Shown piece after piece: positions 10,997-38,261 of a stretch of 64,000 nucleotides of DNA. Under the pieces are notes generated by a model. That model had not been told where the DNA came from, did no database searches, and was given only the letters and a program-made list of their open reading frames with translations. The translations under genes and the position numbers were made by a program. The DNA is from an uncultured bacterium (GTDB lineage Bacteria; UBP4; UBA4092): the NCBI GenBank assembly GCA_963768165.1, contig CAVYHJ010000002.1, forward strand, positions 195,283 to 259,282, in the 5' to 3' direction. The number at the start of each line of letters is the position of its first letter. The stretch's first letter is position 1.

Positions 10997-11016
10997 TATC
11001 CTGTCAATTCACTCCA

Positions 11017-14894: not shown

Positions 14895-14976
14895 TATAAT
14901 TGGTACTCCTTTTTCCTCTAGAATGTATGGCGTCGGGAAAAAGAAGAGCGTTTATTCCCGACGCAGTTTTATTCTG

Positions 14977-15783
14977 TTATTCTTTCGCCCCGGCACTCTT
15001 GAGGAGTTTTACGACGTCGGGATGGTTCTCTTTTGCCGCGTCCATCAAAGCAGTATGACCTTCATTATCTTTCGCATTGACTTGAGCACCTTTTTTTAAT
15101 AAGACTTTAACGGTCTCTGCATGACCTGTGACTGCCGCAAACATCAAGGCAGTCCTGCCATTATTGATTTTCGCATTGACTTCAGCACCTTCTTTTAATA
15201 AGACTTGCACAGTCTCCGTATGACCATTCACTGCCGCTAATATCAATGCGGTCACACCACCCTTGTTTTTTGCATTGACATCCGCCCCTTTTGCTAATAA
15301 GGTTTGAACGATCTTCGTATAACCAAACTCTGCCGCAAGCATCAAGGCGTTTTTACCTTGTTTAGTTATCGCATCAACTTTTGCCCCTTTTGCTAAAAGG
15401 GCTTGCAACGTATCTGTACGACCACTAAGTGCCGCCCATGTCAATGGGGTCCAGTCATCGTTTGATTTCGCATTAATATCAGCACCTTTCGCCAATAAGG
15501 CTTGTAGAGTCTCAATATTATTATGAAATGCCGCAGCCATCAAGGGGGTTCGACCATTATCGTCTTTCAAATTCGGATTCATCCCAGCATCTAAAAACAA
15601 TCTCACAGCGTCAGTTTTGCCGTGTTGTGCACAAAAGAGAAATTCATCTTCGCTATAGGTTATTTTCATTTGCGCCAGTTCATTGCGCGCTTCTTGCGGG
15701 GTTTTGGCGAAGGAGGGGAATACCAGAAACGAAAATAGTAAAAGAGAGAGGCTTAATAATGGATTGAATTTCATCATACTTGG
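14977..15783 (-). CDS. Secreted ankyrin-repeat protein (paralog)
   Basis: Start placed at internal MMKFNPLLSL (AAGGAG RBS) rather than the ORF-track start; same N-terminal FLVFPSFAKTPQEARNELAQMKITYSEDEF as neighbour; at least six ankyrin units. Confidence 0.8.
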   Translation of the reverse strand, partial: PSMMKFNPLLSLSLLLFSFLVFPSFAKTPQEARNELAQMKITYSEDEFLFCAQHGKTDAVRLFLDAGMNPNLKDDNGRTPLMAAAFHNNIETLQALLAKGADINAKSNDDWTPLTWAALSGRTDTLQALLAKGAKVDAITKQGKNALMLAAEFGYTKIVQTLLAKGADVNAKNKGGVTALILAAVNGHTETVQVLLKEGAEVNAKINNGRTALMFAAVTGHAETVKVLLKKGAQVNAKDNEGHTALMDAAKENHPDVVKLLKSAGAKE

Positions 15784-16064
15784 TACTCCTTTTTCCCAAA
15801 GAATGAGAGAGTTTTTTATTACCGATAGCATACTCCCTTCTAGAACCCAGAGTCAAGTTAAAGAGTGGAAGGAACGGGAGAAACGGAGAATGGGCGAGAG
15901 AGCGAAATAGAATCAGGAATGAAGGAAAAGGTCAAATATGTTACCTGCTCCAGCAAAGAGATACCCATTATTTTGCCTATAAATAGACAGGTAGAAAAGA
16001 GTTGAAAAGATAACAGATTGTGCTATAATTTTTCTTAGTCAAAAACGGTCGGGAGGACACTTCG

Positions 16065-17670
16065 ATGAAAACACGTAAACGCATTATTGTTATTTCACAT
16101 TTTCTGTTAGGACTCGCTACGATGATTCTGATTTTACCCGGGAGCGGGTTCGGGAACCAATTGGTGTATTCCACGTATCTGGGCGGGACGAGCGATCATG
16201 CGGAATCATTAGGGATTGCGATTGATACGGCTGGGAATATCTATATTACCGGATTTACCAAAGCACCGAATTTTCCCGTCACAGCATCCGGCTACGATAC
16301 AGTGTATGAAGGCGCGGGAGAGCATGTGTTTGTAAGCAAAATCAATCCGAGTTTATCGGGTGTCTCGTCTTTAGTCTATTCCACTTTTCTTGGCGGAGAG
16401 GGATATGAACTTGCCCGGGGCATTGCGGTGGATAGCGCGGGGAATATCTATGTAACCGGCTTTACCAACTCCTCTACCTTTCCAGTAACCGCGAATGCCT
16501 ACGATACAGGATTACATGGCGCGGAGTACGCGGCTTATCTCAGCGAAATCAATCCGAGTTTATCGGGTGCTTCTTCGTTGGTGTATTCCACGTATCTGGG
16601 TTCGGGTTACGCGGGAGGCTATGGCATTGCCCTTGGTAAATCCGGCAATGCCTATATTACCGGCTCTCAAAGCTATTACACGTTCCCGGTAACTGCCAAT
16701 GCCGTGGATACTGTGGGTACCGGCAATGATGTCGCTTTTATCTCTGAATTTAATACCAGTTTATCGGGTGTCTCCTCCCTGGTCTATTCGACTTTGCTGG
16801 GACCCAAGGACACTTTCGCCGCATATGCCAATGCCATCGCCGTAGATACTTCAGGGAAAATTTACGTAACCGGATTGACGGACTCGTCCACCTTACTTAC
16901 CACAACCAATGCGTTTAATACGACTTTTCATGGGTTACAGGACACGTTTGTGAGTGTGATAAATCCTAATGTGGCGGGATTGGCGGGGTTGGTGTATTCG
17001 ACCCTGCTGGGAGGAAGCCCCGCTAATTACGAGGATTCCGGCAATGGAATTACGGTAGACAAAGCGGGTATTGCCTATGTCACCGGTGTAACAGAAGACA
17101 CAATCTTCCCGGTGACCGCCATTGCCTATGACACCGTATTCAAAGGAAACGGAAATGTATTCCTGTGCAAAATCAATCCGTCCTTATCGGGGGTCTCGTC
17201 TCTGGTCTATTCGACATTATTAGGCGGCAGTGGGGGCGAGGGAGGGGAAGCCATTGCCATTGATACTGCCGAGAAAGTCTATGTGACAGGGTACACATTT
17301 CCCGGTCACGGCAGACGGGTATGATACGACATTCAACGGAACTCAGGATGTTTTTGTGACTGTATTGAATCCCAACTCATTGGGAACCTCCGCTTTGATT
17401 TATTCGACCTTTCTGGGAGGCAATAGCTATAGCGATGGACAGGGAATTGCTCAAGACAATAATAACAAAGTGTATGTCACAGGATATACCTATGCATCGA
17501 ATTTCCCCATCACCTCCAATGCTGTCAGCACTTCTTTACGAGGGACTGCAGGCAGTAACTATGATGCCTTTGCCACGGTGCTGAATATCACTCCTCCGGT
17601 AGCGGTCAATGATTGGATGCTGTATGCAGAGCCGGAAGTGGCGCAAGGGAGTGAGTCGGGAAAGAGGTAA
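16065..17670 (+). pseudogene. SBBP (beta-propeller) repeat protein disrupted by frameshift/deletion
   Basis: Repeating LVYSTYLGG...IYVTGFT...FPVTA.AYDT units; frame 0 stops at 17324 (VTGYTFPGHGRRV*) while the repeat continues in frame +1 from 17299 (FPVTADGYDTTFNG...). Confidence 0.55.
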
Positions 17671-23022: not shown

Positions 23023-25002
23023 CTATTTGGTTTTGGCGGAGTAGTTGTAGATAGCCAGCGAGATGACGCTGAGGAAGGATTCGAGGAGATAGTCCTGTTC
23101 TTGCGAGAGGAACTGAGAATCCTGCGGACGACCGATAGCGAGGACGCCGACAATATCGTTTTTGACGTTCAAGGGGATAAAGCGCCACGCGGAAGAGGAG
23201 AGAGTCTGGGTCTCCCGACCGGCAAGTTCCTTGTGCTCAAATACCCATAAAGCGATAGTCATTTCGTGACTATTAAATTTCACAGAGTCACCGGTTTGGG
23301 AGCGGATAGTGAGTTTACCGGTTTTGTCGGGAAGCAGGAGCGCCGAGTCACAGGCGAACATTTCGGAAATGTCCGAACTGATTCTATCGAGCAAATCAAT
23401 AAACCCGATAGCGTGATACAAATCCTGGCTGAATTCATTGAGCAACGAAATGTACCGCACCTGGGTGCGGGAAGATTCCGATTGCCGTTTGAGACGGTCG
23501 GCAAGGAGACTTGTCACAATGCCGACTAAAAACATGACAAAGAACGTGGGCAGATAACTCATATCGCTGACTGTAAAAGTGAAAATCGGCGGAACAAAAA
23601 AGAAATCGAAACAAAGCACGCTCAACAGGGATGCGACCAGACCGCCGATGAGTCCGCGATAAATCCCTGACAGAATCACGGGAATGATGAATAAAAGGGC
23701 AACATTCGTGAGACCGATGTAAGAATGAAGAGGAAAGCAAATGAGAGTGGTTGCGCCCACGATGGCAAGGCTCATAAGATAGGAACGCCAATCAAGAACG
23801 AGATTGCTTCGTCGCTGCGCTCCTCGCAATGACAAAGGTTGTGGTGACGATTCGCCACCGACTACCAAGACTTGAATAGGATTGCTTTTATCAATAATCT
23901 GGTTCAAGAGTGACCCGCGTATCATTCTACGAAACCGGGATTGGCCGGAGAAACCAACAATAATCAACGAGGCATTTTTTGAACGGGCAAACCGCACGAC
24001 TTCATCGGCAGGCTGGTTGCTGGAAAGACGGACAATTTTCCCGCCCAATTCTTTGGCGAGATTAAAATTCTTCTCCAACTGTTTAGCCCTTTGCGGGTCG
24101 AGCGTAGTTTGCACCTGTGGTTCGACATAGACCGCAAACCAATCGGCTTTTAAATCTTCCGCCAACCGATGTGCCACGCGGACGGGTTGTTCGGACAAGG
24201 GACTCGGACTGATACATACCATAATCCGGGTGCCGACGGGCCAGGGACCTTTAATGCCCTGCAATTGCATGTAAGAGAGCATGGCATCGTCCACGTGCTT
24301 GGCGGTATAGCGCAGGGCTAATTCGCGGAGCGCGAGCAAAGTGCCTTCTTTAAAATAATTCTGGGAGGCGAGTTTCGCCATATTGGCCATGTAGACTTTA
24401 CCTTCGGTTAAGCGCTGGAGAAGTTCTTCCACGGGAAGGTCTACGAGAGCAATTTTATCCGCCAGTTCCAGAATGCGGTCGGGGACGGTTTCCTTCACTT
24501 CAATTTTGGTAATTTGATAAATAATGTCATTGACACTTTCAATATGCTGGATGTTCAAGGTGGTGTAGACACTGATACCGTTATTGAGGAGTTCTTCAAT
24601 ATCTTGAAACCGTTTTACATGGCGTGACCCGGGGACATTGGTATGCGCCAATTCATCCACCAGAACATATTTGGGTTTGCGCTTAAGAATATAGTCCAGG
24701 TTAAACTCATCCAAGACCATACCCTGATATTCTATTTTCAGGAGGGGAGAACGTTCCAATCCAAAAATCAACTGTTCGGTTTCGGCACGACCATGGGTTT
24801 CGACAATGCCGATAATGATATCTTCGCCCTTTTGTTTGATCGCCTGGGCTTCCTGCAACATGCGGTAGGTCTTGCCGACACCGGCCACGTACCCTAAGAA
24901 TATTTTAAGAAATCCCCGGGTGCGATGCTGCTGTTCCTGTTCTTTATTAAACAGGTTCAGCAGTTGATCCGGATCGGGGCGATTTTGATTCTGTTCAACC
25001 AT
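23023..25002 (-). CDS. kdpD: KdpD sensor protein lacking histidine-kinase domains
   Basis: N-terminal P-loop GVGKTY, USP-like region, 4-TM block and GAF-like C-terminus; ends at 659 aa with no H-box or HATPase motifs; directly downstream of kdpC. Confidence 0.75.
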   Translation of the reverse strand: MVEQNQNRPDPDQLLNLFNKEQEQQHRTRGFLKIFLGYVAGVGKTYRMLQEAQAIKQKGEDIIIGIVETHGRAETEQLIFGLERSPLLKIEYQGMVLDEFNLDYILKRKPKYVLVDELAHTNVPGSRHVKRFQDIEELLNNGISVYTTLNIQHIESVNDIIYQITKIEVKETVPDRILELADKIALVDLPVEELLQRLTEGKVYMANMAKLASQNYFKEGTLLALRELALRYTAKHVDDAMLSYMQLQGIKGPWPVGTRIMVCISPSPLSEQPVRVAHRLAEDLKADWFAVYVEPQVQTTLDPQRAKQLEKNFNLAKELGGKIVRLSSNQPADEVVRFARSKNASLIIVGFSGQSRFRRMIRGSLLNQIIDKSNPIQVLVVGGESSPQPLSLRGAQRRSNLVLDWRSYLMSLAIVGATTLICFPLHSYIGLTNVALLFIIPVILSGIYRGLIGGLVASLLSVLCFDFFFVPPIFTFTVSDMSYLPTFFVMFLVGIVTSLLADRLKRQSESSRTQVRYISLLNEFSQDLYHAIGFIDLLDRISSDISEMFACDSALLLPDKTGKLTIRSQTGDSVKFNSHEMTIALWVFEHKELAGRETQTLSSSAWRFIPLNVKNDIVGVLAIGRPQDSQFLSQEQDYLLESFLSVISLAIYNYSAKTK

Positions 25003-25012
25003 TGATTTTCAC

Positions 25013-25579
25013 TTATTTTTTAAGGACATCCAGTGCCATATTCAATTTTAATACATTGACAACCGGATCGCCGAACAACCCCAAGAGAGGTTTTTCGGTA
25101 TATTTTTGAACCAAATCAGTTACGACATCATCCTGCAAACTGCGAGATTTTGCAACTCTTGGCACTTGAAGCAAGGCGGCATCCAGACTTATATGGGGAT
25201 CGAGACCGCTGGCCGAGGATGTGACCAAGTCCACGGGAACAGGCGCATCGGGTGGCAAATTATTTTCCGCACGAACCGCGCGTGCCGTGGAATCAATCTG
25301 GCTAATCAATTTCTGGTTGGTGGGACCGAAATTGGTCGCATTGGAATTGGTGGCATCGAAATTAGCCGCCGAGGGACGCCCGTGGAAATATTCGGGTTTG
25401 GTGAAGGATTGTTCTATTAATTCGGAACCAACAACCTTGTTGTTCACTGTCGCCAGACTGCCATTGGCCTTGTGTGGGAAAAGTATCTGTGCGATTCCGG
25501 TCATTGCCAACGGGTATATCAACCCGGTGAGAATGGTGAATACGATTAAACTCAAGATGGAAATTTTTAACTGTTTCAT
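25013..25579 (-). CDS. kdpC: K+-transporting ATPase subunit KdpC (operon 1)
   Basis: 188 aa, N-terminal TM, conserved GRPSAANFD and SGLDPHIS segments. Confidence 0.85.
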   Translation of the reverse strand: MKQLKISILSLIVFTILTGLIYPLAMTGIAQILFPHKANGSLATVNNKVVGSELIEQSFTKPEYFHGRPSAANFDATNSNATNFGPTNQKLISQIDSTARAVRAENNLPPDAPVPVDLVTSSASGLDPHISLDAALLQVPRVAKSRSLQDDVVTDLVQKYTEKPLLGLFGDPVVNVLKLNMALDVLKK

Positions 25580-25596
25580 TTGTATAATCTCCTTTT

Positions 25597-25686
25597 TTAA
25601 TAACTTCTACCCGACTTTAGTCGAGGGTTCGGGGACTTCAGTCCCAATTTAAGGGCTAAAGCCCTAAGAACCGTGGACTAAAGTCC
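25597..25686. repeat. Interspersed double-hairpin palindromic repeat (family R1), copy 3
   Basis: CTTCTACCCGACTTTAGTCGAGGG..GGACTTCAGTCC..GGGCTAAAGCCC..GGACTAAAGTCCCGTAGAAGAA between kdpC and kdpB. Confidence 0.6.
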
Positions 25687-25702
25687 CGTAGAAGAAAATA
25701 TG

Positions 25703-27739
25703 TTATGCCCAACCTAATACAACGATGAGCATGTCAATTAGTTTGATACCGATGAAGGGAAGAAGCACTCCGCCCAACCCATATACCAGTAAATTCATTT
25801 TCAAGAACGAGGAAACGGAAACGGCACGTAATTTGACGCCCCTCAATGCCAACGGGATTAAGAACAAAATAATAATCGCGTTGAAAATGACGGCGGACAA
25901 AATCGCACTCCCAGGATTATTTAACCTCATCACATTCAGAATATTCAACTGCGGATAAGCGACCGCAAACATTGCCGGAACGATGGCGAAATATTTCGAG
26001 ACATCGTTGGCAATACTAAAAGTAGTAAGCGCGCCACGCGTGATAAGGATTTGTTTTCCGACTTCCACAATATCGAGAAGTTTCGTGGGATTGGAATCCA
26101 AATCAATCATATTGGATGCTTCCCGCGCCACCTGCGTGCCTGCATTCATAGCGACCGCGACATCGGCTTGCGCGAGAGCGGGTGCGTCATTAGTCCCGTC
26201 TCCAATCATCGCGACAAGGTTACCGTCCTCTTGTGCCTTGCGAATTAATGCCAATTTGGTTTCGGGTTTGGCCTGAGCAACGAAATCATCCAGCCCGGCT
26301 TCCGCGGCAATCGAAGCAGCGGTGAGCGGGTTATCGCCGGTAATCATGGTGGATTTGATACCCATTTCACGGAGTTGCGCGAGACGAGCTTTAATGCCTT
26401 GTTTCAGAACGTCTTTGAGACGAATCACGCCAAGAACTCTTTTCCCGTCAGAAACGACCAAAGGCGTATTACCTTGTTTGGCGAACCCTTCCACGATGTC
26501 CTTGACTCCGGCAGGGATTGTGGCATTGGACTGTTTCAGAAATTCTTCAATCGCGTCCAAGGAACCCTTGCGGATTTTTTTGCCATCAATATCAATCCCG
26601 CTCATGCGTGTTTCGGGAGTGAAAGGTACGAACACGGCACCTTCGGGAGCACGGATATCGCTTCCCTTGATACCTTTTTCGGTTTTACAGAGGGTTACAA
26701 TACTTCTGCCTTCGGGAGTTTCATCGGATAGTGAGGATAACAAGGCACAGTCCACCAATTCTGCTTTTTCAACTCCAGCAGAAGGAACCAAATCGGTTGC
26801 CATACGATTGCCGAGAGTGATGGTACCCGTCTTATCGAGCAAGACGATATTGACATCGCCTGCCGCTTCTACCGCACGACCGCTCAGAGCGATGACGTTG
26901 TGTTGTAATAGTCTATCCATCCCTGCGATACCGATAGCGGGAAGTAAACCGCCAATGGTGGTCGGCATGAGGCATACCAAGAGAGAAATCAATATCGGGA
27001 CGGTGGTCGCGATACCCAAATAATTGGCATAGGTGGGCAGGACGATAACGACGATTAGGAACAACACTGTGATGCCGACAAGGAGAATTTCTAAAGCGAT
27101 TTCATTGGGTGTCTTTTGACGTTTCGCGCCTTCGACCATAGAAATCATGCTATCGAGGAATGTCTCACCGGCATTCGCCGTGATACGGATTTTGATATGT
27201 CCCGATAATAGTTTGGTTCCACCAGTCACGCCACTGCGGTCACCACCGGATTCCCGAATCACGGGAGCGGATTCACCAGTGATGGCAGATTCGTCCACAA
27301 GAGCGACGCCTTCGATAATTTCTCCATCACCGGGAATGACTTCCCCTTCAATAACCAGAATCAAATCGCCTTTGCGAAGATCCAAGGCGGATACTTTTTC
27401 TTTCGCTCCACTTTCCAATATTTTAAGAGCAAAGAGTTCGCTGCGTGCTTTCCGCAAAGATTCCGCACGTGCTTTCCCTTGAATTTCCGCCAAGGCTTCC
27501 GAGAAGGTGGCGAAAAGAACGGTCACCCAGAGCCAAAGGGTAATTTGCAAATTAAACCCGAAACTGGCATGATGGGTGATATTGATTACCGTGATGATAG
27601 TGGTAATCACAGCGCCGATTTCAACGACCAACATTACGAGATTGCGCCATAATAAAAAGGGATTTAATTTTTTAATAGCTTCCTGCAATCCCTTGAACAG
27701 AAAGTCCGCTTGAAATATACTTCGTTTCGTTTGTGCCAT
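25703..27739 (-). CDS. kdpB: K+-transporting P-type ATPase subunit KdpB (operon 1)
   Basis: P-type motifs [21 protein letters not shown]; 678 aa. Confidence 0.95.
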
Positions 27740-27806
27740 ATATTATCTCCTTAGAACCACCACCCCCTTCCCCCTCCTTAATTAAGGAGGGGGACTGAGG
27801 GAGTGA

Positions 27807-29507
27807 TTAAAATGTTTTTCCTTGCAACATGAATAAATGTTCCAACACGGGACCGAGGGTGAATGCCGGGAAATAGGTCAATGCGCCGACAATAAAGACT
27901 ACGCAAACCAGCATAGCGACAAATAACCAGCCGGTGGTTGGAAATGTAGCCAAACTGGTAGGAACAATCTTTTTCCTGACCAGTGCTCCGGCAATAGCCA
28001 GTCCTGGAATGAGGGTGGAAAATCGTCCAACCAACATGGTGGCGCCACCGGTTAAATTATAAAACACGGTATTGGCGTTAAGTCCGGCAAACGCGGAACC
28101 GTTATTCCCACCATAGGATAAAAAGGCATATAACACTTCCGACCAACCGTGGGCGGAGGGATTATTCATGCTGGACAATCCGGTGGCGGTAATCATAGCG
28201 AATGCCGCAAAGATTTTAAGAACAATGGGCGCTGCCAAAATTGCAATCACCGTCCAAATCATTTCATAAGGACCAAGTTTCTTGCCAAGATATTCAGGGG
28301 TACGTCCGATCATCAATCCAGCAATAAACATAGTGGCGAAGACATAGAAAAACATTCCGATGAGTCCGACACCCAATCCGCCGAAGATGACTTCCCCAGT
28401 GCATAAGTTAAACATATAGACTAGACCCGTGAGGGGGAGCATACTGTCGTGCATAGAGTTCACGGAGCCGTTGGAAGTGACGGTGGTCATGTGTCCCCAT
28501 GCAGCAGAATTGATAATCCCAAAACGGGCTTCTTTGCCTTCCATATTCCCCCCAACCAGATGCAACTTATCGAAAAAGGGGTTACCCTGGGTTTCGCTAT
28601 AGAATACTACGGCCAAACCTATAATAAATAGGGTTAACATGGAATAAAAGATGGCTTTGCCTTGACGGCTATCGCGTACCATAAAACCAAACATGAACAC
28701 TTGCGCGGTGGAAATGAAGAGAATTGCCATCATTTCAAAAATATTAGACAAGCCAGTGGCATTCTCAAAGGGATGCGCGGAGTTGACGTTGAAGAAACCG
28801 CCGCCATTAGTTCCCAACTGTTTAATGGCAATCTGTGAAGCTGCAGGACCAACGGCAATGGTTTGCGCACCGCCTTCCAATGTCTTTACTACCTCATACG
28901 GATGTAAGGTTTGAACGACACCTTGAGACACCAAAATGAGGGTAAGGATAATGCTCAATGGCAATAATATATATATTACAGAACGGGTCATATCCACCCA
29001 GTAATTGCCTATCTTGTCGGTATCTTTGCGAATAAATCCGCGAATCATGGCGACCATGACTGCCATCCCCATCGCGGGGGTAACGAAATTATGTACCGTG
29101 AGTCCCAGCATTTGGGTGAGATAACTCAGGGTACTTTCCCCGCCATACGCCTGCCAGTTGGTATTGGTGACAAAAGAGATGGCGGTATTTAATGCCAAAT
29201 CCCAACGGACGGCAGCGAATTTTTGCGGATTCAAAGGCAGATGCCCTTGAAGAAGCTGCAATAAAAATAAAGCGGCGAGAAATATTACATTGAACCAGAA
29301 TACCGCCCAGGCATAAGTTTTCCAGTTCATTTCTTCGGATTCATTGACGCCGCAGAGACGGTATATTCCACGCTCAAGAGGTTTTAAGAACCCGCTGAGA
29401 AATGTCCATTCTCCGTTATACACCCGGAACATATATTTCCCTGTCGGGATGGACAGGAAAAACATGATTGCCAAGGCAACAACAACTACAATCATATCTA
29501 TTAACAT
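27807..29507 (-). CDS. kdpA: K+-transporting ATPase subunit KdpA (operon 1)
   Basis: 566-aa polytopic protein with KdpA-typical GTNGGGFF selectivity-filter-like motifs. Confidence 0.9.
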   Translation of the reverse strand: MLIDMIVVVVALAIMFFLSIPTGKYMFRVYNGEWTFLSGFLKPLERGIYRLCGVNESEEMNWKTYAWAVFWFNVIFLAALFLLQLLQGHLPLNPQKFAAVRWDLALNTAISFVTNTNWQAYGGESTLSYLTQMLGLTVHNFVTPAMGMAVMVAMIRGFIRKDTDKIGNYWVDMTRSVIYILLPLSIILTLILVSQGVVQTLHPYEVVKTLEGGAQTIAVGPAASQIAIKQLGTNGGGFFNVNSAHPFENATGLSNIFEMMAILFISTAQVFMFGFMVRDSRQGKAIFYSMLTLFIIGLAVVFYSETQGNPFFDKLHLVGGNMEGKEARFGIINSAAWGHMTTVTSNGSVNSMHDSMLPLTGLVYMFNLCTGEVIFGGLGVGLIGMFFYVFATMFIAGLMIGRTPEYLGKKLGPYEMIWTVIAILAAPIVLKIFAAFAMITATGLSSMNNPSAHGWSEVLYAFLSYGGNNGSAFAGLNANTVFYNLTGGATMLVGRFSTLIPGLAIAGALVRKKIVPTSLATFPTTGWLFVAMLVCVVFIVGALTYFPAFTLGPVLEHLFMLQGKTF

Positions 29508-29737
29508 AAATTTCCTTTCTTTTGTAATTTAGGCTTTTACTTTATACAACAGCCTGAATTTTACTACTATTCAAAAATCAATTCAACTGTTTTCCTTTTA
29601 CATGGTACCCTCCATTAAAAAATTGGCTTTTGAAAATATTAGATTACACTTTTGCTCAATTTAAACAATCTTAAAATTGCAAAGAATTGTGTTACTACAA
29701 CTGATAAATAATAAAAAGAAGTTAGGTGGAGGGTTCA

Positions 29738-29896
29738 TAAATAAAAAACCCACTCACTCTTCCACGCCTACGAGGTTAGCTGACGGGCTCGGGTTGAAAA
29801 GTAACCCTACGCTTTCGCGATTAGCCCCAACTTCCGGTTCCCCCGTATCTTTCGAATTCGGCGAACTTAAGTGGTAATACTGCTATATTTTTCTAC
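29738..29896 (-). promoter_or_regulatory. Candidate c-di-AMP (ydaO/kimA-type) riboswitch leader, copy B
   Basis: Same conserved core as copies A, C, D; internal GNRA-capped hairpin CGC-GAAA-GCG; 3' tail GAGUGAGUGGGUUUUUUAU. Confidence 0.6.
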
Positions 29897-30074: not shown

Positions 30075-30114
30075 AAAAACAATAGGAATCCTACCTTTTC
30101 AAGGCAGGATTCCT
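30075..30114 (-). terminator. Intrinsic terminator downstream of kdpC (operon 2)
   Basis: Hairpin GGAATCCTGCC/GGTAGGATTCC followed by U-run on the minus-strand transcript. Confidence 0.55.
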
Positions 30115-30140
30115 ACAAAAGCAACCACTTTAGGAATATA

Positions 30141-30716
30141 TTATTTGGCAGAAGATTGAACTTGATCCAATGCGATATTTAACTTCAAGACATTGACGCC
30201 CGGATCACCAAGGAAGCCCAAAGTTCGAGAATCGGTATTTTTCTGGATCAGATCTTGTACCGTTGCCTCATCCATTTTTCGAGCTTTAGCAACCCTTGGA
30301 ACTTGAAATAAGGCAGCCTCCAGGCTTATATGGGGATCCAAACCACTGGCGGACCCTGTGACCAAGTCTACTGGCACTAGTGCATCTGCGGGCAGGTTAT
30401 TTTCCTGTCGAATAACATTCGCAGTAGAATCAATTTGACTAATAAGTTTTTGGTTGGTGGGTCCCAAGTTAGACCCGGTGGAATTCCCACCATCAAAATT
30501 CGCCGGAGATGGCCGCCCATGAAAATACTCCGGTTTGGTAAAAGATTGTTCGATTAATTCAGAACCAACCGTTTTCCCATTCACCTGTATTAGACTGCCA
30601 TTGGCTTTATATGGGAATAAAACCTGACAGATGCCTGTCATCATCAAGGGATAAAATAACCCTGTTAAGATTGAAAAAACTACAAAGGTTGTGATCGATC
30701 TTGTTAAATCTTTCAT
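30141..30716 (-). CDS. kdpC: K+-transporting ATPase subunit KdpC (operon 2)
   Basis: 191 aa, paralog of 25013..25579. Confidence 0.85.
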   Translation of the reverse strand: MKDLTRSITTFVVFSILTGLFYPLMMTGICQVLFPYKANGSLIQVNGKTVGSELIEQSFTKPEYFHGRPSPANFDGGNSTGSNLGPTNQKLISQIDSTANVIRQENNLPADALVPVDLVTGSASGLDPHISLEAALFQVPRVAKARKMDEATVQDLIQKNTDSRTLGFLGDPGVNVLKLNIALDQVQSSAK

Positions 30717-30729
30717 TTTTAGGACCTCC

Positions 30730-32793
30730 TTAAGCCCAACCTAAAGATACAATGAGCATGTCTATGAGTTTAATACCGATAAATGGTAATATCACACCAC
30801 CCAACCCATAAATTAACAAGTTTCTCTTCAAGAAAGCAGAAACTGTAGTGAGTCGTAACTTGACCCCTTTCAATGCCAAAGGAACCAAACAAAGAATGAT
30901 AATGGCATTGAAGATAACAGCAGACAAAATCGCACTGTATGGGTTTGACAACCCCATCACGTTTAATATATTCAACTGTGGATAGGTAATTGCAAACATA
31001 GCCGGTATGATGGCGAAATACTTGGATACATCATTGGCTATGCTGAACGTGGTTAAAGCTCCACGGGTAATGAGAATTTGTTTACCCACTTCAACGATAT
31101 CCAATAGTTTGGTGGGATTGGAATCCAAATCCACCATATTGGAGGCTTCCCGTGCCACTTGAGTTCCGGCATTCATTGCTACCGCTACATCGGCTTGAGC
31201 CAGGGCAGGAGCATCATTGGTCCCATCCCCAATCATAGCGACCAAGTTCCCATCGGACTGATATTTGCGTATCAACTGTAATTTGGTTTCCGGTTTGGCT
31301 TGCGCTACAAAATCATCCAATCCAGCTTCTGCGGCAATAGACGAAGCAGTTAATGGATTGTCACCGGTAATCATAATCGACTTAATCCCCATCTCTCGTA
31401 GTTGTGCCAACCTGGCTTTGATACCTTGCTTTAATACATCTTTTAACCGGATGACCCCTATGATCTTTTTGCTATTTGCTACAACCAAAGGAGTATCGCC
31501 TTGTTTCGCAAATTCTTCGACTTTGTTTCTCACATCACTAGGGATACTGAAATGAGATGGGCGTATAAATTCTTCGATGGCATCAAGCGCTCCTTTTCGA
31601 ATCATTTTTCCATCAATATCTATTCCACTCATCCTGGATTCAGGTGTAAAAGGAACAAAAACCGCACCTTCGGGAGCCCGGATATCACTTCCTCTAATCC
31701 CTTTTTCAGTTTTACACAATGTTACTATGCTTCTTCCTTCCGGTGTTTCATCTGAAAGTGAAGATAATAAAGCGCATTCGGTCATTTCTTTTTTATCTAT
31801 CCCTGCCGCCGGGATCAATTCAGTCGCCATGCGGTTTCCTAGGGTGATCGTCCCGGTCTTATCCAACAGAACCACATTGACATCACCGGAAGCTTCTACG
31901 GCACGACCGCTAAGGGCGATCACATTGTGTTGCAATAATCTATCCATGCCAGCAATACCAATAGCCGGAAGTAATCCTCCGATCGTGGTGGGCATTAAGC
32001 AAACCAATAAGGAGATTAAGATTGGAATGGTAGTAACGATTCCCATATAACTGGCATAAGCGGGAAGGGTTACGACGACAATCACGAACAATACGGTTAT
32101 ACCAATCAGCATGATCTCCAAAGCGATTTCGCCGGGTGTTTTTTGCCGTTTCGCACTTTCCACCATTTTAATCATGCCATCCAGAAATGTTTCTCCAGGA
32201 TTGGCAGTAATTTTGATTTTGACTTTTCCAGAGATTAATTTTGTTCCTCCGGTTACCCCACTCCGGTCTCCTCCAGATTCTCGAATAACCGGAGCTGATT
32301 CTCCTGTTATGGCCGATTCATCGATTAAGGCAACACCTTCAACTATTTCACCATCTCCAGGAATTACATCTCCATCAGCGACTAAAATTATGTCGCCTTT
32401 GCGAAGAGACAGGGCAGATACAGTCTCTATGCTACCATTGTCCAACAATTTTTGGGCAGACAATTCGCTTCTGGCACGGCGTAAAGATTCAGCACGAGCT
32501 TTTCCCTGAATTTCAGCCAAGGCTTCCGAAAAGGTTGAGAAAATAACAGTAAACCACAACCAGAGGGAAATCTGTAAATTAAAGGAGAAACTGGTGTGAT
32601 GGGCAATACTGACGATGGTTACTACAGTAGTAACCATCGCGCCGATCTCCACAACCAGCATGACAATATTTCTCCATAGTGTAAAAGGATTTAATTTTAT
32701 TATGGATTCTTTCAATCCTTGTAACAAGAAATCCGCTTGAAATAGGTTTTGTTTTTTTTGTGTCATATGCAATCTCCTTATGCGTTGGGTCAT
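30730..32793 (-). CDS. kdpB: K+-transporting P-type ATPase subunit KdpB (operon 2)
   Basis: [17 protein letters not shown]; paralog of 25703..27739. Confidence 0.95.
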
Positions 32794-32811
32794 GACATCG
32801 TCATGACTCTA

Positions 32812-34560
32812 CTAAAAAGTTTTTCCTTGCAACATAAATAAATGTTCCAATACAGGTCCTAGTGTAAACGCCGGAAAATACGTTAAGGCACCCACAATGA
32901 ATATTACACAGACTAACATGACAACAAACAACCAACCAGTGGTAGGAAAAGTGGCTGTACTTGTAGGAACAATCTTTTTCTGTACTAGTGAACCGGCAAC
33001 AGCCAGTCCCGGTATTAAGGTGGCGAACCGACCTACTAGTATGGTGACTGATCCTGTGAGGTTATAAAATAAGGTGTTAGCGTTAAGACCCGCAAAAGCA
33101 GAACCATTATTACCACCAAAGGATAAATAGGCATAGAGTATTTCTGACCAGCCATGTGCTGAGGGATTATTTAAGCTGGATAATCCTGTCGGTGTAATAA
33201 TGGCAATCGCTGAAAATATTTTGAGTATGATAGGCGCTGCCAGAATTGCAACCACCGTCCAAATCATTTCATAAACTCCTAATTTTTTACCCAGATACTC
33301 AGGAGTTCGTCCTATCATCAACCCGGCTATGAACATGGTGGTAAATACATAAAACAAAACACCAACCGTTCCTATGCCGACACCGCCGAAAATTACTTCT
33401 CCGGTACCCATAAAGAACATATAAACCAAACCGGTGAGCGGGAGCATACTGTCATGCATGGAATTAATCGAACCATTGGCTGTTCCTGTTACCAATCCTC
33501 CCCACACAGCGGAGTTTATAATCCCACAGCGAGTTTCCTTGCCTTCCATATTCCCGCCCACAACGTGTAATTTAGCAAACAAAGGATTCCCTTGCGTTTC
33601 TGTATATACACAAATGATTAACCCAATCACTAAGAGAATCAACATGGAATAAAAGATGGATCGGCCCTGACGAACATCTTTGACCATATATCCAAAGGTA
33701 AAAACAGGTGCACTGACCAAAAGGATAATCGCCATCATTTCCAAAAACATAGTCAACCCGTTTGGATCTTCAAAAGGATGTGAGGAATTCGTGTTGAAGA
33801 AACCTCCGCCATTGGTACCCAACTGTTTAATAGAAATTTGTGAGGCTACAGGACCCATGGCAATGGTCTGAGACCCGCCTTCCAAAGTTTTCACAGTTAC
33901 ATAAGGATGTAAGTTTTGAATAACACCCTGGGATCCCAATATCAATCCTAAAACAATACTTAATGGAATTAACACGTAAAGAATCGACCGGGTCAAGTCC
34001 ACCCAATAGTTACCAATAAAATTGGTATCTTTGCGTATAAATCCCCGGGTCAGAGCAACCAATACTGCTAAAGCTATGGCAGGAGAGACAAAATTATGCA
34101 CAGTCATACCTAGCATTTGGGTAAGATAACTCATGGTGGTTTCTCCCCCATAAGCCTGCCAGTTGGTATTGGTGATAAAGGAGATAGCTGTATTTAATGC
34201 CAGGTCCCATTTCAACCCCGGCAATTTTTGTGGATTCAGAGGAAGATAACCCTGAACCAGTTGTAAGACAAACAAAGTTATCAAAAAGATAACATTTGAC
34301 CAAACAAATGCCCAAGCATAGGTTTTCCAATTCATCTCCTCATCTTCATTAATGAAACAAACCCGGTAGATTCCTTTTTCCAATGGCCGGAATACCGGGG
34401 AAAGAAATGTTCTTTTCCCTTCGTATACATGAGCCATGAATTTCCCTATTGGGATGGACAGGAGTAATGTAACGATTAAACCAATTGTGACTACAAGTAT
34501 ATCTATCATATTAATTATCCTTTCTTCAAAAGATGGTCTTTCATTAATCTCATTAATCAA
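32812..34560 (-). CDS. kdpA: K+-transporting ATPase subunit KdpA (operon 2)
   Basis: Paralog of 27807..29507; alternative start at 34509 (MIDILVV, GAAAGGA RBS) is plausible. Confidence 0.9.
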   Translation of the reverse strand: MINEINERPSFEERIINMIDILVVTIGLIVTLLLSIPIGKFMAHVYEGKRTFLSPVFRPLEKGIYRVCFINEDEEMNWKTYAWAFVWSNVIFLITLFVLQLVQGYLPLNPQKLPGLKWDLALNTAISFITNTNWQAYGGETTMSYLTQMLGMTVHNFVSPAIALAVLVALTRGFIRKDTNFIGNYWVDLTRSILYVLIPLSIVLGLILGSQGVIQNLHPYVTVKTLEGGSQTIAMGPVASQISIKQLGTNGGGFFNTNSSHPFEDPNGLTMFLEMMAIILLVSAPVFTFGYMVKDVRQGRSIFYSMLILLVIGLIICVYTETQGNPLFAKLHVVGGNMEGKETRCGIINSAVWGGLVTGTANGSINSMHDSMLPLTGLVYMFFMGTGEVIFGGVGIGTVGVLFYVFTTMFIAGLMIGRTPEYLGKKLGVYEMIWTVVAILAAPIILKIFSAIAIITPTGLSSLNNPSAHGWSEILYAYLSFGGNNGSAFAGLNANTLFYNLTGSVTILVGRFATLIPGLAVAGSLVQKKIVPTSTATFPTTGWLFVVMLVCVIFIVGALTYFPAFTLGPVLEHLFMLQGKTF

Positions 34561-34714
34561 CAGTGAAATTAAAATTCTTTTCTAAATGCCAACCCATTGG
34601 ACCGTCATAATTCCTCTTCATCTCCTCCTAAAATTTCTCCTGACGAATCATGGTCACCAGGAGATAGACTATTAAAATCACAGTTATAAAACCTGCAATT
34701 AAATCCCCATAGGC

Positions 34715-34807
34715 TTACTGGTCCTCCAGTTTCTCTAATGCTTTGATACAGACAAAGCAAAGGGCTATAATAATCACAGCTATGGCAATGACTTGCAAAT
34801 CACTCAT
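34715..34807 (-). CDS. kdpF: KdpF-like small hydrophobic peptide (30 aa)
   Basis: MSDLQVIAIAVIIIALCFVCIKALEKLEDQ; AGGAGGG RBS 8 nt upstream; sits between the P-II gene and kdpA; not in the ORF track because it is short. Confidence 0.5.
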   Translation of the reverse strand: MSDLQVIAIAVIIIALCFVCIKALEKLEDQ

Positions 34808-34819
34808 GCAATTTCCCTC

Positions 34820-35179
34820 CTACAAAAATGAAACTGCGCATTCATCCGTTTCTCCGGTACGAATACGAACGGCTCTTTCGATTGGAAACACATAAATTCT
34901 GTCATTGGAGACTTTGCCATTACGCGCGGCAAACATCATGGTTTCCACAATCCGGTCGGTTTGTTCTCGGGGAACAACCACTTCAACTTTCAATTTGGGC
35001 AGAAAATCCATAATATACTCCACTCCCCGATAAACTTCTTTATGCCCTTTTTCCGTCCCACAGACTTGAACTTCTGTCACGGTGATGCCTTGAACTCCAA
35101 GGGCCTGAAGCGCGTCTTTCACATCATCCAACTTATACGGTTTAATGATGCATTCAATTTTGTTTAACATATTTAACAT
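34820..35179 (-). CDS. P-II (GlnB/GlnK-like) signal-transduction protein, first gene of kdp operon 2
   Basis: KIECIIKPYKLDDVKDAL...GITVTEV...EVYRGVEY...FLPKLKVEVVVP...RIRTGE aligns with GlnB; T-loop and GDGKIF-like B-loop are diverged; AGGAGG RBS. Confidence 0.75.
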   Translation of the reverse strand: MLNMLNKIECIIKPYKLDDVKDALQALGVQGITVTEVQVCGTEKGHKEVYRGVEYIMDFLPKLKVEVVVPREQTDRIVETMMFAARNGKVSNDRIYVFPIERAVRIRTGETDECAVSFL

Positions 35180-35427
35180 GTTTCTTTAACCTCCTATGTA
35201 GCAAGTTAATCTCGATTCAAATATTTTTTAATTAGCAAAGTGCGGAGCCGGAAACTTAAGGAGGAAACCGGCTCCGCGATTAGCCCATATAACACAATTC
35301 AAAAATATGGGTTAACTTTTAAATTCTAATTACATCATCCGATACATGTATTTGGACTTAAACCAAAATTAACGTCATGTATCTATAACGATGAATCAAT
35401 TATTTAGGAAGTTAATGGGGTGGGGTT

Positions 35428-35590
35428 TCAATAAAAAACCCACTCACTCTTCCACGCCTGCGAGGTTAGCTGACGGGCTCGGGTTGAAAAGTAACCCTAC
35501 ACCTTGCGGTGATTCGCCCCAACTTTCGGTTCCCCCGCCTTTTTCAAGCTCGGCGAACTTAAGTGGTACTATTAAAATTCTATGTTATTT
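35428..35590 (-). promoter_or_regulatory. Candidate c-di-AMP (ydaO/kimA-type) riboswitch leader, copy C
   Basis: Conserved core; internal hairpin CACC-GCAA-GGUG covaries with GCGC-GCAA-GCGC (D), CGC-GAAA-GCG (B) and CGCG-GAAA-CGCG (A). Confidence 0.6.
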
Positions 35591-35760
35591 TACTTATATA
35601 AAAATAACGCATATCCCATACCAGTTATAATGAATTCTAAAGGTTTTCAACAACTCAAATATTTTCAATATTTTACAATTAAATCTGTAAAAACCATTCG
35701 GTAAACTTATGACATAAATGTCATTTAGAACTGCGAAACATTGTCATAATTATGACATTT

Positions 35761-35976
35761 TTAGAAACAGTTATGTTTTTTTATGTTCAAGTTATGGATC
35801 ACCTTTAATTGGCTATTTGAGTTATTTTTGTTTTTGGCACACTTAGTTAATACCACCCCACCTTGAGGGTGAATTGCTTTATCGGAGTTATAAAGCATAT
35901 CCTGCAAATCCATAATTTGATCCCTCATAATTCGGATCATATAATCTTCCTGTAACTCGTAATGGGCATGGATCAT
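35761..35976 (-). CDS. Small helical protein, paralog b
   Basis: 71 aa; AAGGAG RBS; shares an RDQIMDLQDML / RLQIMELQRFL segment with the next gene. Confidence 0.4.
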   Translation of the reverse strand: MIHAHYELQEDYMIRIMRDQIMDLQDMLYNSDKAIHPQGGVVLTKCAKNKNNSNSQLKVIHNLNIKKHNCF

Positions 35977-36001
35977 AGGATTCTCCTTAGTCTTTATTGC
36001 T

Positions 36002-36220
36002 TTAGTACATCAGGAACTTTTGACGGAGTTCCTGGCGCAATTTTTTTAATTGCAATTCGATATTACTTAATGTTTCGACGCCCAATTCGCCATCCTTTTG
36101 AAAACCGTGATTATGTTCCAGCGCCTTTAGAAATCTCTGCAATTCCATAATCTGGAGGCGTAATATACTCGCTCTGAAATCTTTCATTCGACTCATATTT
36201 ATGCCTATTTGAACTCTCAT
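36002..36220 (-). CDS. Small helical protein, paralog a
   Basis: 72 aa; start overlaps the stop of the upstream P-II gene (ATGA). Confidence 0.4.
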   Translation of the reverse strand: MRVQIGINMSRMKDFRASILRLQIMELQRFLKALEHNHGFQKDGELGVETLSNIELQLKKLRQELRQKFLMY

Positions 36221-36558
36221 ACAGCGCTTTCAGACAGTTCTCCAGTTCGAATCCGAACAGCCATATCAATGGGAATCACAATAATCTTAATGTTGGAGAT
36301 ATGATTATTACGCAAGGTTGAAGTAATCGTATCTACAGCCCTGGAGACCATTTCTTCAGGGAGCACTAACTCGATTTTCACCTTAAGTAAATAATCAACG
36401 TTGAACTCTACTCCACGATAAACTTCAGTAGGTTTAATTTCTCGATTAGAAACTTTAACCTCCGTGGCCGCCAATCCGTGAATACCAATATCAAGGAGGG
36501 CTTCTTTCACTTCCTCCACTAGACTGGGTTTGATAATGCACTCGATTTTTTGTAACAT
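36217..36558 (-). CDS. Divergent P-II-like protein (paralog 2)
   Basis: MLQKIECIIKP...ATEVKV...EVYRGVEF...KVKIELVLP...RIRTGE; GlnB-like fold signature with altered T-loop. Confidence 0.6.
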   Translation of the reverse strand: MLQKIECIIKPSLVEEVKEALLDIGIHGLAATEVKVSNREIKPTEVYRGVEFNVDYLLKVKIELVLPEEMVSRAVDTITSTLRNNHISNIKIIVIPIDMAVRIRTGELSESAV

Positions 36559-36686
36559 GGTTATTTACCTCCTCATAAATTTTTTATTTTGTGTTCTCAA
36601 TCGTTTTCATTTCATTGGGACGCCGGATTGGGTGATGTGAATCCGGCGCCCATTAATCCCCCAATAAATATAGTGGATAGCTTGTA

Positions 36687-37028
36687 CTAAGCCGCTTTCG
36701 GATACCATTTTTGGGGATATTGTTCACTTACAACCATTACCGGGACCACATAAAAGTTTCCCTTTGTTTTACCATCAACACAAATAATACGAGTGATGGT
36801 CTCAATCACCCTGTTTACCAGATGTTGGGAAACGATAGTTTCGATTTTGGTGTATGCCTGGAACTCCAACTTGTATTGGATACCCCTATAGGATAAGGTC
36901 GGGCTATTAACCGGATCATACACTTTGGCATCAGAAAGTGTAATCTCATCAATACCCATACCCTTTAGGGCTTCAGTGACTCCACCCAATTTATAGGATT
37001 TGATGGTGCATTCGATTTTTTGAAACAT
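36687..37028 (-). CDS. Divergent P-II-like protein (paralog 3)
   Basis: MFQKIECTIKSYKL...SYRGIQY...TKIETIVS; weaker GlnB-like pattern, C-terminal RxR motif absent. Confidence 0.5.
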   Translation of the reverse strand: MFQKIECTIKSYKLGGVTEALKGMGIDEITLSDAKVYDPVNSPTLSYRGIQYKLEFQAYTKIETIVSQHLVNRVIETITRIICVDGKTKGNFYVVPVMVVSEQYPQKWYPKAA

Positions 37029-37049
37029 GTTACGAACCTCCTTTAAGGT

Positions 37050-37304
37050 TTAATTGATGAATTTGTTTAATTTTTTGTGATATTCAATTGATTTATTATG
37101 TTTCTGAAAATAAGCTTGTACCGTAATCACATAAATGCCACAAACCAATATGGAAAGGATAAAAAACCCCAGAAAAAAACACTGGTCGGCATTGAACCCT
37201 AAAAATGACCAAGGCTGGCTTTGAGCAACAGTATCTGTACTCATCTCACTCCATACTTTTTGTACGAGAGGAGCAATAGCTTGAATTGTATAATTAAAAG
37301 TCAT
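37050..37304 (-). CDS. Small membrane protein
   Basis: 84 aa with one TM segment; between the M23 peptidase and P-II paralog 3. Confidence 0.35.
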   Translation of the reverse strand: MTFNYTIQAIAPLVQKVWSEMSTDTVAQSQPWSFLGFNADQCFFLGFFILSILVCGIYVITVQAYFQKHNKSIEYHKKLNKFIN

Positions 37305-37363
37305 CGTTGAAACTCCTTATAACGTCATTTCATTGGAGGACTCTAAAAATCCATCCAAAAGAA

Positions 37364-37912
37364 TTAAAGTAAATATTTCATAGGATTCACAGGTACTCCA
37401 TTTAGCCGAATTTCAAAATGGACATGCGGTCCTGTGGCAAGTCCGGTACTGCCCACCAAGGCAATGACCTGTCCGCGTTCCACCCCTTGACCCACTTGGA
37501 CTAGAACACTGGAACAATGCCCATATAAAGTAATAAAATCATTGTCATGTTGGATAATGACGCATTTCCCTAAAAGCCCATGCCATCCGGCACCTACCAC
37601 ACGCCCGGATTGCGATGCGCAAATAATGGTTCCATGCTCTGCGGCAATATCTATTCCACTATGAAACCGGATTCCCCCCTCGATAGGATGATGGCGATAA
37701 CCAAACCCAGACGTTATAAGCCCATCTACCGGCCAGACAAAACCAAGTTTTTCATCAGGCACGGAACCGTTAAAATATTGATTGACATTCCTATTATTCA
37801 TCTCAGGTGCCTGCGCATAACTCCAATTGGCGATAATTCCAGGTATCACCAAAAGCAACATAATACCTGTCATCCGTTTTTTATAGAGTTGTTTCCATAA
37901 CCGTTTCATCAT
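37364..37912 (-). CDS. Secreted M23 family metallopeptidase
   Basis: HxxxD-type HSGIDIA and HVHFE motifs; start set at MMKRLW (AGGAG RBS, signal peptide) rather than the ORF-track start 38023. Confidence 0.8.
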   Translation of the reverse strand: MMKRLWKQLYKKRMTGIMLLLVIPGIIANWSYAQAPEMNNRNVNQYFNGSVPDEKLGFVWPVDGLITSGFGYRHHPIEGGIRFHSGIDIAAEHGTIICASQSGRVVGAGWHGLLGKCVIIQHDNDFITLYGHCSSVLVQVGQGVERGQVIALVGSTGLATGPHVHFEIRLNGVPVNPMKYLL

Positions 37913-38097
37913 TTTTCTCCTAACTTTTTGACGAGCAGAGCCGGACTGGTGGCAATCCGACCCTGCTCTAACCCCGCTCATACAATTCAAAATACGGGAT
38001 ATCTTTAAATCCTTAAAAAACACCTATAAGGATTATTTCCAATACATACTGTACAAAAAATGATTAAATTGGTTTAGGAAGTAAAATGGGAGGGTTA

Positions 38098-38261
38098 TAA
38101 ATAAAAAACCCACTCACTCTTCCACGCCTGCGAGGTTAGCTGACGGGCTCGGGTTGAAAAGTAACCCGGCGCTTGCGCGCTTCGCCCCTACTTCTTGGTT
38201 CCCCCGCCTCTTACGAGCTCGGCGAACTTAAGTGGTGCTAAGTTCTTGATTTAATTTTCTA
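38098..38261 (-). promoter_or_regulatory. Candidate c-di-AMP (ydaO/kimA-type) riboswitch leader, copy D
   Basis: Conserved core with GCGC-GCAA-GCGC hairpin; 3' tail GAGUGAGUGGGUUUUUUAU; M23 peptidase gene downstream. Confidence 0.6.

Follow-up and report, generated by a model that had tools for sequence, protein, structure and literature searches.

Divergent GlnB-type P-II paralogs among c-di-AMP riboswitch-controlled kdp and M23-peptidase genes of an uncultured bacterium

The locus described here lies in a 64,000-nt stretch of DNA from an uncultured bacterium of the UBP4 lineage (contig CAVYHJ010000002.1), which we call the window and in whose numbering all positions are counted. It carries three genes for proteins of the P-II (GlnB-like) family, P-II-1, P-II-2, and P-II-3, among genes for two copies of the Kdp potassium pump and for a secreted M23-family peptidoglycan peptidase (Table 1). 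From ~38.3 kb down to 23 kb, everything is encoded on the minus strand as a single block controlled by cyclic di-AMP (c-di-AMP). The order of open reading frames (ORFs), together with the RF00379 and PF01551 matches, places P-II-3 and P-II-2 after the M23 peptidase gene behind riboswitch D, just as had been proposed in an earlier reading of the bare sequence (the original prediction). The positions it gave for the three P-II ORFs also stand, and all three products pass the 25-bit gathering cut-off of the Pfam model PF00543; no further P-II gene turned up in the window when all six frames were scanned with phmmer.

Table 1. Features of the c-di-AMP-controlled block and of the fourth riboswitch (window positions)
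Feature	Position	Strand	Basis
Fourth c-di-AMP riboswitch, ahead of KimA-like permease	11090..11216	-	RF00379
kdpA1-kdpB1-kdpC1 and kdpD'	23023..29507	-	Pfam
kdpD' (KdpD_N, Usp, DUF4118, and GAF; without HisKA/HATPase)	23023..25002	-	Pfam
c-di-AMP riboswitch B, leader of kdp1	29750..29873	-	RF00379, 94 bits
kdpA2-kdpB2-kdpC2 (second Kdp pump copy)	30141..34509	-	ORFs; KdpA and P-type ATPase Pfam marks on identical contig L003
True KdpF motif, 28 codons	34628..34711	-	PF09604 Potass_KdpF, 26.9 bits (cut-off 21.2)
30-residue hydrophobic peptide ORF	34715..34807	-	No Pfam match even at E<=10; called as gene in L003
P-II-1 (derived GlnB; G37-T38-E39, Y51, K58, B-loop GKVSNDR, R101/R103 kept)	34820..35179	-	PF00543, 85.5 bits
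c-di-AMP riboswitch C, leader of P-II-1 and kdp2	35440..35565	-	RF00379, 101 bits
Helical protein B, 71 residues	35761..35976	-	N-terminal helix paralogous to that of helical protein A
Helical protein A, 64 residues	36002..36196	-	Gene caller and L001 orthologue; longer ORF from ATGA overlap at 36220
P-II-2 (derived GlnB; N37-R38-E39, F51, K58, B-loop NHISNIK, R101/R103 kept)	36217..36558	-	PF00543, 57.2 bits
P-II-3 (most diverged; Y46-R47-G48 and Y51 kept; without K58, B-loop, C-loop R101/R103)	36687..37028	-	PF00543, 28.6 bits
84-residue single-pass membrane protein	37050..37304	-	ORF, AAGGAG ribosome-binding site; gene called in independent assembly
Secreted M23 (LytM-type) peptidoglycan peptidase, 181 residues	37364..37912	-	PF01551, 121 bits; gene caller
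c-di-AMP riboswitch D (ydaO class), leader of M23/P-II-3/P-II-2 operon	38110..38234	-	RF00379, 92 bits

Riboswitches were called with the Rfam covariance model RF00379 (gathering score 38), which finds four copies in the window, each full-length (model positions 1-134) and scoring 92-101 bits; the c-di-AMP riboswitches that had been predicted ahead of P-II-1 (leader C) and of the M23 operon (leader D) score well above the gathering level. Riboswitches B, C, and D hardly differ, even over ~40 nt of 3' flank (GTGGGTTTTTTATT...AACCC...TAACTTCC), and carry compensatory changes in one variable stem, a pattern that points to a local and recent duplication of the entire leader, by which the 15-kb block came to have three riboswitches one after another. 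The fourth copy is more divergent than the other three; together with the gene for a 777-residue, KimA-like AA_permease_2 protein, which has ~250 extra C-terminal residues without a Pfam match, it occupies positions 8663..11216 of the minus strand. Leaders of the ydaO class permit transcription when c-di-AMP is low, and the pairing of such a riboswitch with kdp, with a KimA-like permease, or with a cell-wall hydrolase is classical for the c-di-AMP (ydaO) regulon. Promoter and terminator consensus scans of the window performed no better than on shuffled sequence, leader C folded with z = -0.9, and a classical terminator was not found in it.

Membership of the three proteins in the GlnB branch of the P-II family is supported by several lines of comparison. 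Identity to canonical GlnB is ~60% for P-II-1 (across hundreds of sequences), ~50% for P-II-2, and ~30% for P-II-3. In the Protein Data Bank (PDB), the top match of P-II-1 is Aquifex GlnB (2eg1; E 2e-37), with E. coli GlnB also among the best, and that of P-II-2 is Neisseria PII (2gw8; E 8e-30); full-length alignments with solved GlnB structures are obtained for both proteins. An AlphaFold2 model of P-II-3 (predicted local distance difference test score, pLDDT, 82) adopts the P-II fold, with a template-modeling score of 0.88 to M. tuberculosis PII (3lf0), although its multiple sequence alignment consisted of canonical P-II sequences, which favors this outcome. The double beta-alpha-beta ferredoxin-like fold with a long T-loop is therefore found in all three, in the P-II-3 model and in the alignments of the other two. 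At the same time, P-II-1, P-II-2, and P-II-3 score only 135.9, 100.2, and 48.8 bits against the NCBIfam GlnB equivalog NF008111 (cut-off 202) and 123, 85, and 39 bits against the GlnK equivalog NF007946 (cut-off 181). In a neighbor-joining tree with 70 canonical sequences, the P-II-1 clade, P-II-2, and P-II-3 come out as one group in 140 of 200 bootstraps. The residues C6 and V35 are derived features common to all three, and E39, S87, and N88 are common to P-II-1 and P-II-2. By sequence, then, the three genes encode derived GlnB-type P-II proteins rather than ordinary GlnK copies with intact ATP/2-oxoglutarate residues, as had been anticipated. A tie to the known c-di-AMP-binding P-II-like families, in contrast, was not borne out: a PF06153 (DarA/PstA) match at E<=1 is missing from all three, and the PDB matches of P-II-1 and P-II-2 at E<=1e-3 include no SbtB or PstA chain, the best of them being GlnB/GlnK, so that a DarA/PstA- or SbtB-type identity was rejected.

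What sets these proteins apart from canonical GlnB is the effector site. In canonical P-II proteins, R38 and Q39 at the T-loop base form the Mg2+/2-oxoglutarate switch, and the B-loop (G84-K-x-G87-D88-G89-K90) binds ATP and ADP. Among the best database relatives of P-II-1 and P-II-2, the GDGK motif is present in 235 of 238 sequences and GRQ in 232 of 238. In the window, the GDGK-type B-loop is lost from all three proteins, as originally noted, being replaced by SNDR in P-II-1, by SNIK in P-II-2, and by an unrecognizable stretch in P-II-3; R38-Q39 has become T-E, R-E, and P-V, respectively. The rebuilt pocket of P-II-1 thus combines R38T and Q39E with G87S-D88N-G89D-K90R, and the combination of Q39E with G87S, D88N, and G89D should abolish canonical 2-oxoglutarate sensing; canonical MgATP/2-oxoglutarate sensing by any of the three paralogs is unlikely. 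In the ADP state, Q39 contacts K58 and the nucleotide is bound by the B-loop, and R47 of the GlnK T-loop plugs the ammonium channel AmtB (PMC3198391). K58, R101, and R103 are present in P-II-1 and P-II-2 and lost from P-II-3.

The T-loop itself is better preserved than the original prediction held. Its tip, Y46-R47-G48, is invariant in P-II-1, P-II-2, and P-II-3; P-II-1 and P-II-3 have the modifiable Y51, for which P-II-2 has Phe; and 12 of the 19 T-loop residues of P-II-1, Y51 included, match E. coli GlnB (counted from the alignment). Divergence is real at the base of the loop, and it is there and in the B-loop that the sequence changes concentrate, but it does not extend uniformly over the T-loops. 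At the start of the P-II-1 gene (35161..35179, minus strand), a 9-nt tandem duplication (ATGTTAAAT ATGTTAAAC) adds three residues (MLN) relative to the orthologous proteins P0001 and P0002.

P-II-1 is tightly linked to the second kdp operon. Its TAG stop (34820-34822) is separated from the ATG of the next ORF (34807) by a 12-nt gap that holds GGAGGG, so the junction is arranged exactly as first described, ribosome-binding site included. The 30-residue ORF that begins there had been taken for a kdpF-like gene; it carries no KdpF signal in Pfam, and the PF09604 motif falls instead in the next 28 codons, which are in frame with the ORF, lie directly past its TAA, and have no ATG, GTG, or TTG start. 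The sequence of this region (34628..34807) is identical in the independent assembly L003. The layout could reflect a kdpF in decay, initiation at an ATT at 34699, or read-through of the TAA to give a two-helix peptide. A 22-codon ORF (MKRNYDGPMGWHLEKNFNFTVD; 34553..34621, minus strand) with an AGGAGG site follows the KdpF motif, ahead of kdpA2. A terminator-like hairpin at 30082..30116 ends the kdp2 operon, whose products are 70-83% identical to those of kdp1.

The kdp1 operon has no recognizable kdpF upstream of kdpA1 and ends with kdpD', next to which no kdpE was seen. The kdpD' product belongs to a described class of KdpD proteins that lack histidine-kinase domains and whose sole role would be serine phosphorylation of KdpB; short KdpD/Usp forms of this sort are stimulated by c-di-AMP (PMC11018627). 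Ahead of kdpA1 (~29540..29615, minus strand), and likewise at ~800..900 of the independent contig L001 described below, there is a conserved leader with a start-stop mini-ORF (GGAGG-N4/5-ATGTAA) and an AGGCT...AGCCT hairpin. The locus contains no amtB, glnA, or glnD, its genes being kdp, M23, and those for small proteins without a family match, and the P-II genes show no linkage to glnA, amtB, or nif genes.

That the pairing of P-II with kdp is no assembly artefact is clear from its recurrence in L001, a 6,963-bp metagenome contig from a different sample and sequencing run. Here the order is helA-helB-P-II-kdpA-kdpB-kdpC-kdpD', where helA and helB encode the orthologues of helical proteins A and B; gaps along the helA-helB-P-II-kdp run are 6 to 25 nt, with 6 nt before P-II, and no riboswitch is found between helB and P-II, the place equivalent to that of riboswitch C. 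The L001 P-II protein is 85% identical to P-II-1 and is encoded directly upstream of kdpA. Its kdpABC-kdpD' products are 89-91% identical to those of kdp1 in the window but only 70-83% identical to those of kdp2; the kdp genes of L001 are thus orthologous to kdp1, and the link between P-II and kdp is older than the local duplication of kdp and riboswitches. The simplest history would start from an ancestral operon ...P-II-2-helA-helB-P-II-1-kdpABC-kdpD', into which a second kdp set and extra riboswitches were inserted in the lineage of the window. At the cut end of L001 (positions 1..25), the sequence would translate as the tail of an ORF (...STGRR*), its stop 1 nt ahead of the helA ATG; this very short stretch is possibly the C-terminal end of a P-II-2 orthologue that is cut short past the RTGE motif.

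Only a tiny clade has this arrangement. In reference genomes, none of 80 control loci, obtained from a scan of genome contigs with P-II-1, has kdpA or kdpC within 10 kb of a canonical GlnB gene, and the nearest canonical relatives adjoin glnA (P0003) or unrelated genes, never kdp. The kdp context and the rebuilt effector site coincide in the P-II-1 clade and in no canonical relative examined.

Behind riboswitch D, the M23 peptidase begins with a hydrophobic, signal-like segment, and the 84-residue membrane protein that follows has no Pfam or NCBIfam match at E<=0.05. Two small helical proteins are encoded downstream of P-II-2. Helical protein A is 89% identical to its L001 orthologue and is predicted to form a two-helix hairpin (pLDDT 75); no Pfam or NCBIfam family matches it, and a metagenome scan with the helical-A alignment returned no match. 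The ATGA overlap with P-II-2 through which the two genes were said to be coupled does exist (36217-36220), but both the gene caller, in the independent assembly, and the L001 orthologue make 36196 the more likely start. A stretch resembling a peptidoglycan-binding repeat by eye ('DGxLGxxT') was considered and discarded, as Pfam gives no match at E<=1 and the predicted structure is simply a hairpin of helices. Helical protein B is conserved with its L001 counterpart over the first 29 residues and not in its tail.

We searched for relatives with a word-based method (5.8e9 protein clusters) and, for P-II-3, exhaustively with phmmer (1.84e9 representative proteins). The P-II-1 type comprises four distinct sequences among the 5.8 billion clusters: the window protein, P0001 (95% identical to it), P0002 (85%), and P0240, a protein from JGI that is encoded on a 23.6-kb contig and falls in the same 90% cluster as P0002. 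The motif V35, G37, [TS]38, E39, S87-N88-D89-R90 is fixed in these four and, besides the window protein, occurs only in P0001, P0002, and P0240. P-II-2 retrieves only an exact match to itself, the next matches being canonical and at most 59% identical; no called gene is recorded for its database entry (P0121). P-II-3 is an orphan, returning only itself in the word-based search and 31-40% identity at best with phmmer. The best canonical matches come from Deltaproteobacteria, Magnetococcales, and Dadabacteria metagenome-assembled genomes. In the scan of genome contigs with P-II-1, nothing exceeded 60% identity, and canonical GlnB sequences, picked up by the conserved pattern VQGITVTE, dominated the output; NGKxSNDRIYV, searched as a degenerate DNA pattern, had no match.

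Rarity notwithstanding, the genes appear to be under constraint. All reading frames are intact and preceded by strong ribosome-binding sites. Between the window and L001, the ratio of nonsynonymous to synonymous substitution rates (dN/dS) is 0.146 for P-II-1, 0.059 for helical protein A, and 0.36 for helical protein B, compared with 0.07-0.08 for KdpA, KdpB, and KdpC at the same divergence; on these low ratios, P-II-1 and helical protein A are kept by purifying selection. That the system is a real, selected, lineage-specific innovation is well supported.

Elsewhere in the window, two adjoining genes (14196..15831, minus strand) encode ankyrin-repeat proteins of 232 and 284 residues, and 16065..17324 encodes an SBBP beta-propeller protein; both types are uncommon in bacteria and are unrelated to the P-II finding. 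A sigma-54 activator and a GH44 protein are also encoded among the window's neighboring genes; taken with the best canonical P-II matches, these neighbors at most hint at an uncultured Gram-negative lineage.

The reading that we favor, with a probability of roughly 0.45, is that the three P-II proteins are lineage-specific, neofunctionalized descendants of GlnB that have been recruited into a c-di-AMP turgor regulon comprising Kdp-mediated K+ uptake and M23-mediated cell-wall remodeling. When c-di-AMP is low, the riboswitches would let transcription proceed, and the P-II paralogs would be made together with the pump. The trimer scaffold appears to be preserved in P-II-1, as is the T-loop tip (Y46-R47-G48, Y51), with which P-II proteins dock onto partners; since this tip is kept, P-II-1 probably binds a protein encoded next door: the Kdp complex, much as GlnK plugs AmtB and SbtB binds SbtA, or alternatively the kinase-less KdpD' that would phosphorylate KdpB. 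P-II genes commonly cluster with the transporters that they regulate (PMC8654305). With its MgATP/2-oxoglutarate sensor rebuilt, P-II-1 would no longer report carbon and nitrogen status in the canonical manner; it may answer to another ligand or stay locked in one T-loop state, for instance through an E39-K58 salt bridge mimicking the contact that Q39 makes with K58 in the ADP state, the one that binds the transporter. The two helical proteins, P-II-2, and P-II-3, whose role is least clear, may be accessory components expressed alongside, perhaps as adaptors or as partners in heterotrimers. On synteny, the P-II paralogs are probably a lineage-specific add-on regulator of K+ uptake. A more specific version, in which the P-II-1 clade would add a third type of transporter-regulating P-II protein to GlnK-AmtB and SbtB-SbtA, with its T-loop on KdpFABC or KdpD' and a pocket (T38/E39/S87/N88/D89/R90) that senses c-di-AMP or K+, and in which P-II-2 and P-II-3, as heterotrimers or with the helical adaptors, would link the pump to cell-wall expansion, strikes us as doubtful.

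It should be noted that several observations weigh against recruitment to K+ uptake. The locus already holds a dedicated post-translational Kdp regulator, KdpD' with its Usp domain, so a P-II regulator is not needed to fill a gap. In the window, P-II-1 precedes kdp2 and not the kdp1 that its L001 orthologue precedes. The clade is tiny and its gene context is visible in two organisms only, and close relatedness might account for part of the conserved synteny, the Kdp proteins being ~90% identical. In the database searches, P-II-2 and P-II-3 have no detectable orthologues, and P-II-3, with K58 and the C-loop gone, may be decaying. The grouping of the paralogs in the neighbor-joining tree joins long branches and may reflect long-branch attraction. 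Finally, the ON/OFF logic assigned to the riboswitches is that of their class and is not read from the sequence of these leaders.

Among other explanations, c-di-AMP itself might be the ligand: the rebuilt inter-subunit pocket would bind it, and a rise in c-di-AMP would turn Kdp off at the level of the protein. Dual control by c-di-AMP, of expression and of activity, is the norm for K+ importers (PMC11018627; compare KtrA, KimA, and KdpD-Usp), SbtB shows that a P-II-type cleft can accept the dinucleotide (PMC8654305), and here the canonical ATP/2-oxoglutarate residues are gone and all three genes lie behind RF00379 riboswitches. We nevertheless regard a receptor of this kind as unlikely, given that the family and PDB searches described above recovered neither PF06153 nor an SbtB/PstA chain, that the new acidic residues E39 and D89 in the phosphate-binding site disfavor a dinucleotide, and that the Usp domain of KdpD' already offers a c-di-AMP input. 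Could the old connection to nitrogen have been retained instead, with a GlnK-like P-II-1 gating Kdp as an NH4+ carrier or coupling K+ uptake to the synthesis of glutamate, its counter-ion? Kdp-mediated NH4+ futile cycling in E. coli was reportedly described by Buurman et al. in 1991 (cited in PMC4432691), and the ~60% identity of P-II-1 to GlnB, with Y51, K58, R101, R103, and the R47 T-loop plug all kept, fits such a role. However, the 2-oxoglutarate residues Q39 and G87 and the GDGK motif are changed in every member of the P-II-1 clade, and in a locus devoid of amtB, glnA, and glnD the controlling signal is c-di-AMP, not nitrogen, which makes a nitrogen function quite unlikely.

The position of P-II-3 and P-II-2, directly after the genes for the M23 peptidase and the 84-residue membrane protein and behind riboswitch D, together with the very strong conservation of helical protein A, would suit control of the cell-wall branch, in which at least these two P-II proteins, with the helical proteins, act on the peptidase or its membrane partner and not on Kdp. 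A peptidase with a signal-like N-terminus would act outside the cytoplasm, however, where P-II proteins do not reside, and in L001 helA, helB, and P-II run straight into kdp, suggesting one ancestral operon; we therefore consider this improbable. The least probable explanation, and a very improbable one, is that the paralogs are evolutionary debris, that is, redundant GlnB copies drifting without a specific role after local duplication. It is most plausible for P-II-3, which is an orphan and in which K58 and the C-loop are lost; the branches in the tree are long, and the locus shows recent duplication of riboswitches and kdp. Drift is nonetheless at odds with the dN/dS of P-II-1, with a new motif fixed in four sequences, with intact frames behind strong ribosome-binding sites, and with a P-II-3 model that folds confidently as P-II.

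Few signal integrators in biology are as widespread as the P-II proteins, and each new target or ligand (AmtB, NAGK, PipX, SbtA, and c-di-AMP for SbtB) has altered the view of what they do. If recruitment into the c-di-AMP turgor regulon is correct, the recurring pairing of P-II with transporters would extend to K+ and turgor homeostasis, the P-II-1 clade would provide a natural case in which the ATP/2-oxoglutarate pocket has been rebuilt while the T-loop output is kept, and Kdp would have an extra layer of control in organisms without the KdpDE two-component system; with so rare a clade, the biological reach may be narrow.

Set beside known systems, the window proteins resemble GlnB and GlnK in family, fold, T-loop length, and the Y46-R47-G48 tip, and P-II-1 carries signals of co-transcription with a cation transporter, as in glnK-amtB; they differ in that the genetic partner is kdp or M23 instead of amtB or glnA, in the c-di-AMP riboswitches, and in the replaced B-loop and R38/Q39. 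DarA/PstA share a small, trimeric P-II-like fold and a part in c-di-AMP signaling, but they form a separate Pfam family (PF06153) with swapped T- and B-loop lengths. SbtB is likewise a P-II-type protein encoded with its transporter, the cyanobacterial bicarbonate transporter SbtA, and has a non-canonical nucleotide specificity that includes c-di-AMP (PMC8654305), whereas the window proteins have no CGPEGC-type C-terminal extension, no sbtA in the locus, and GlnB/GlnK as their best PDB matches. The closest precedent is PII-NG (Sant'Anna et al., 2009; for example, Geobacter GSU2134), a clade derived from GlnB/GlnK whose members are encoded by the first gene of czcABC cation-antiporter operons (PMC7726332). 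The likeness is one of logic, GlnB/GlnK descent and first place in a cation-transporter operon, and it was drawn from descriptions of PII-NG, not from its sequence; the CzcABC systems are proton/metal antiporters and PII-NG is widespread in Proteobacteria, whereas Kdp is a P-type K+ pump and the P-II-1 clade is tiny. In line with the original prediction, a literature search, to which many subscription papers were out of reach, found no described P-II protein in a kdp operon, nor one behind a c-di-AMP riboswitch. The c-di-AMP (ydaO) regulon and kinase-less KdpD are both known.

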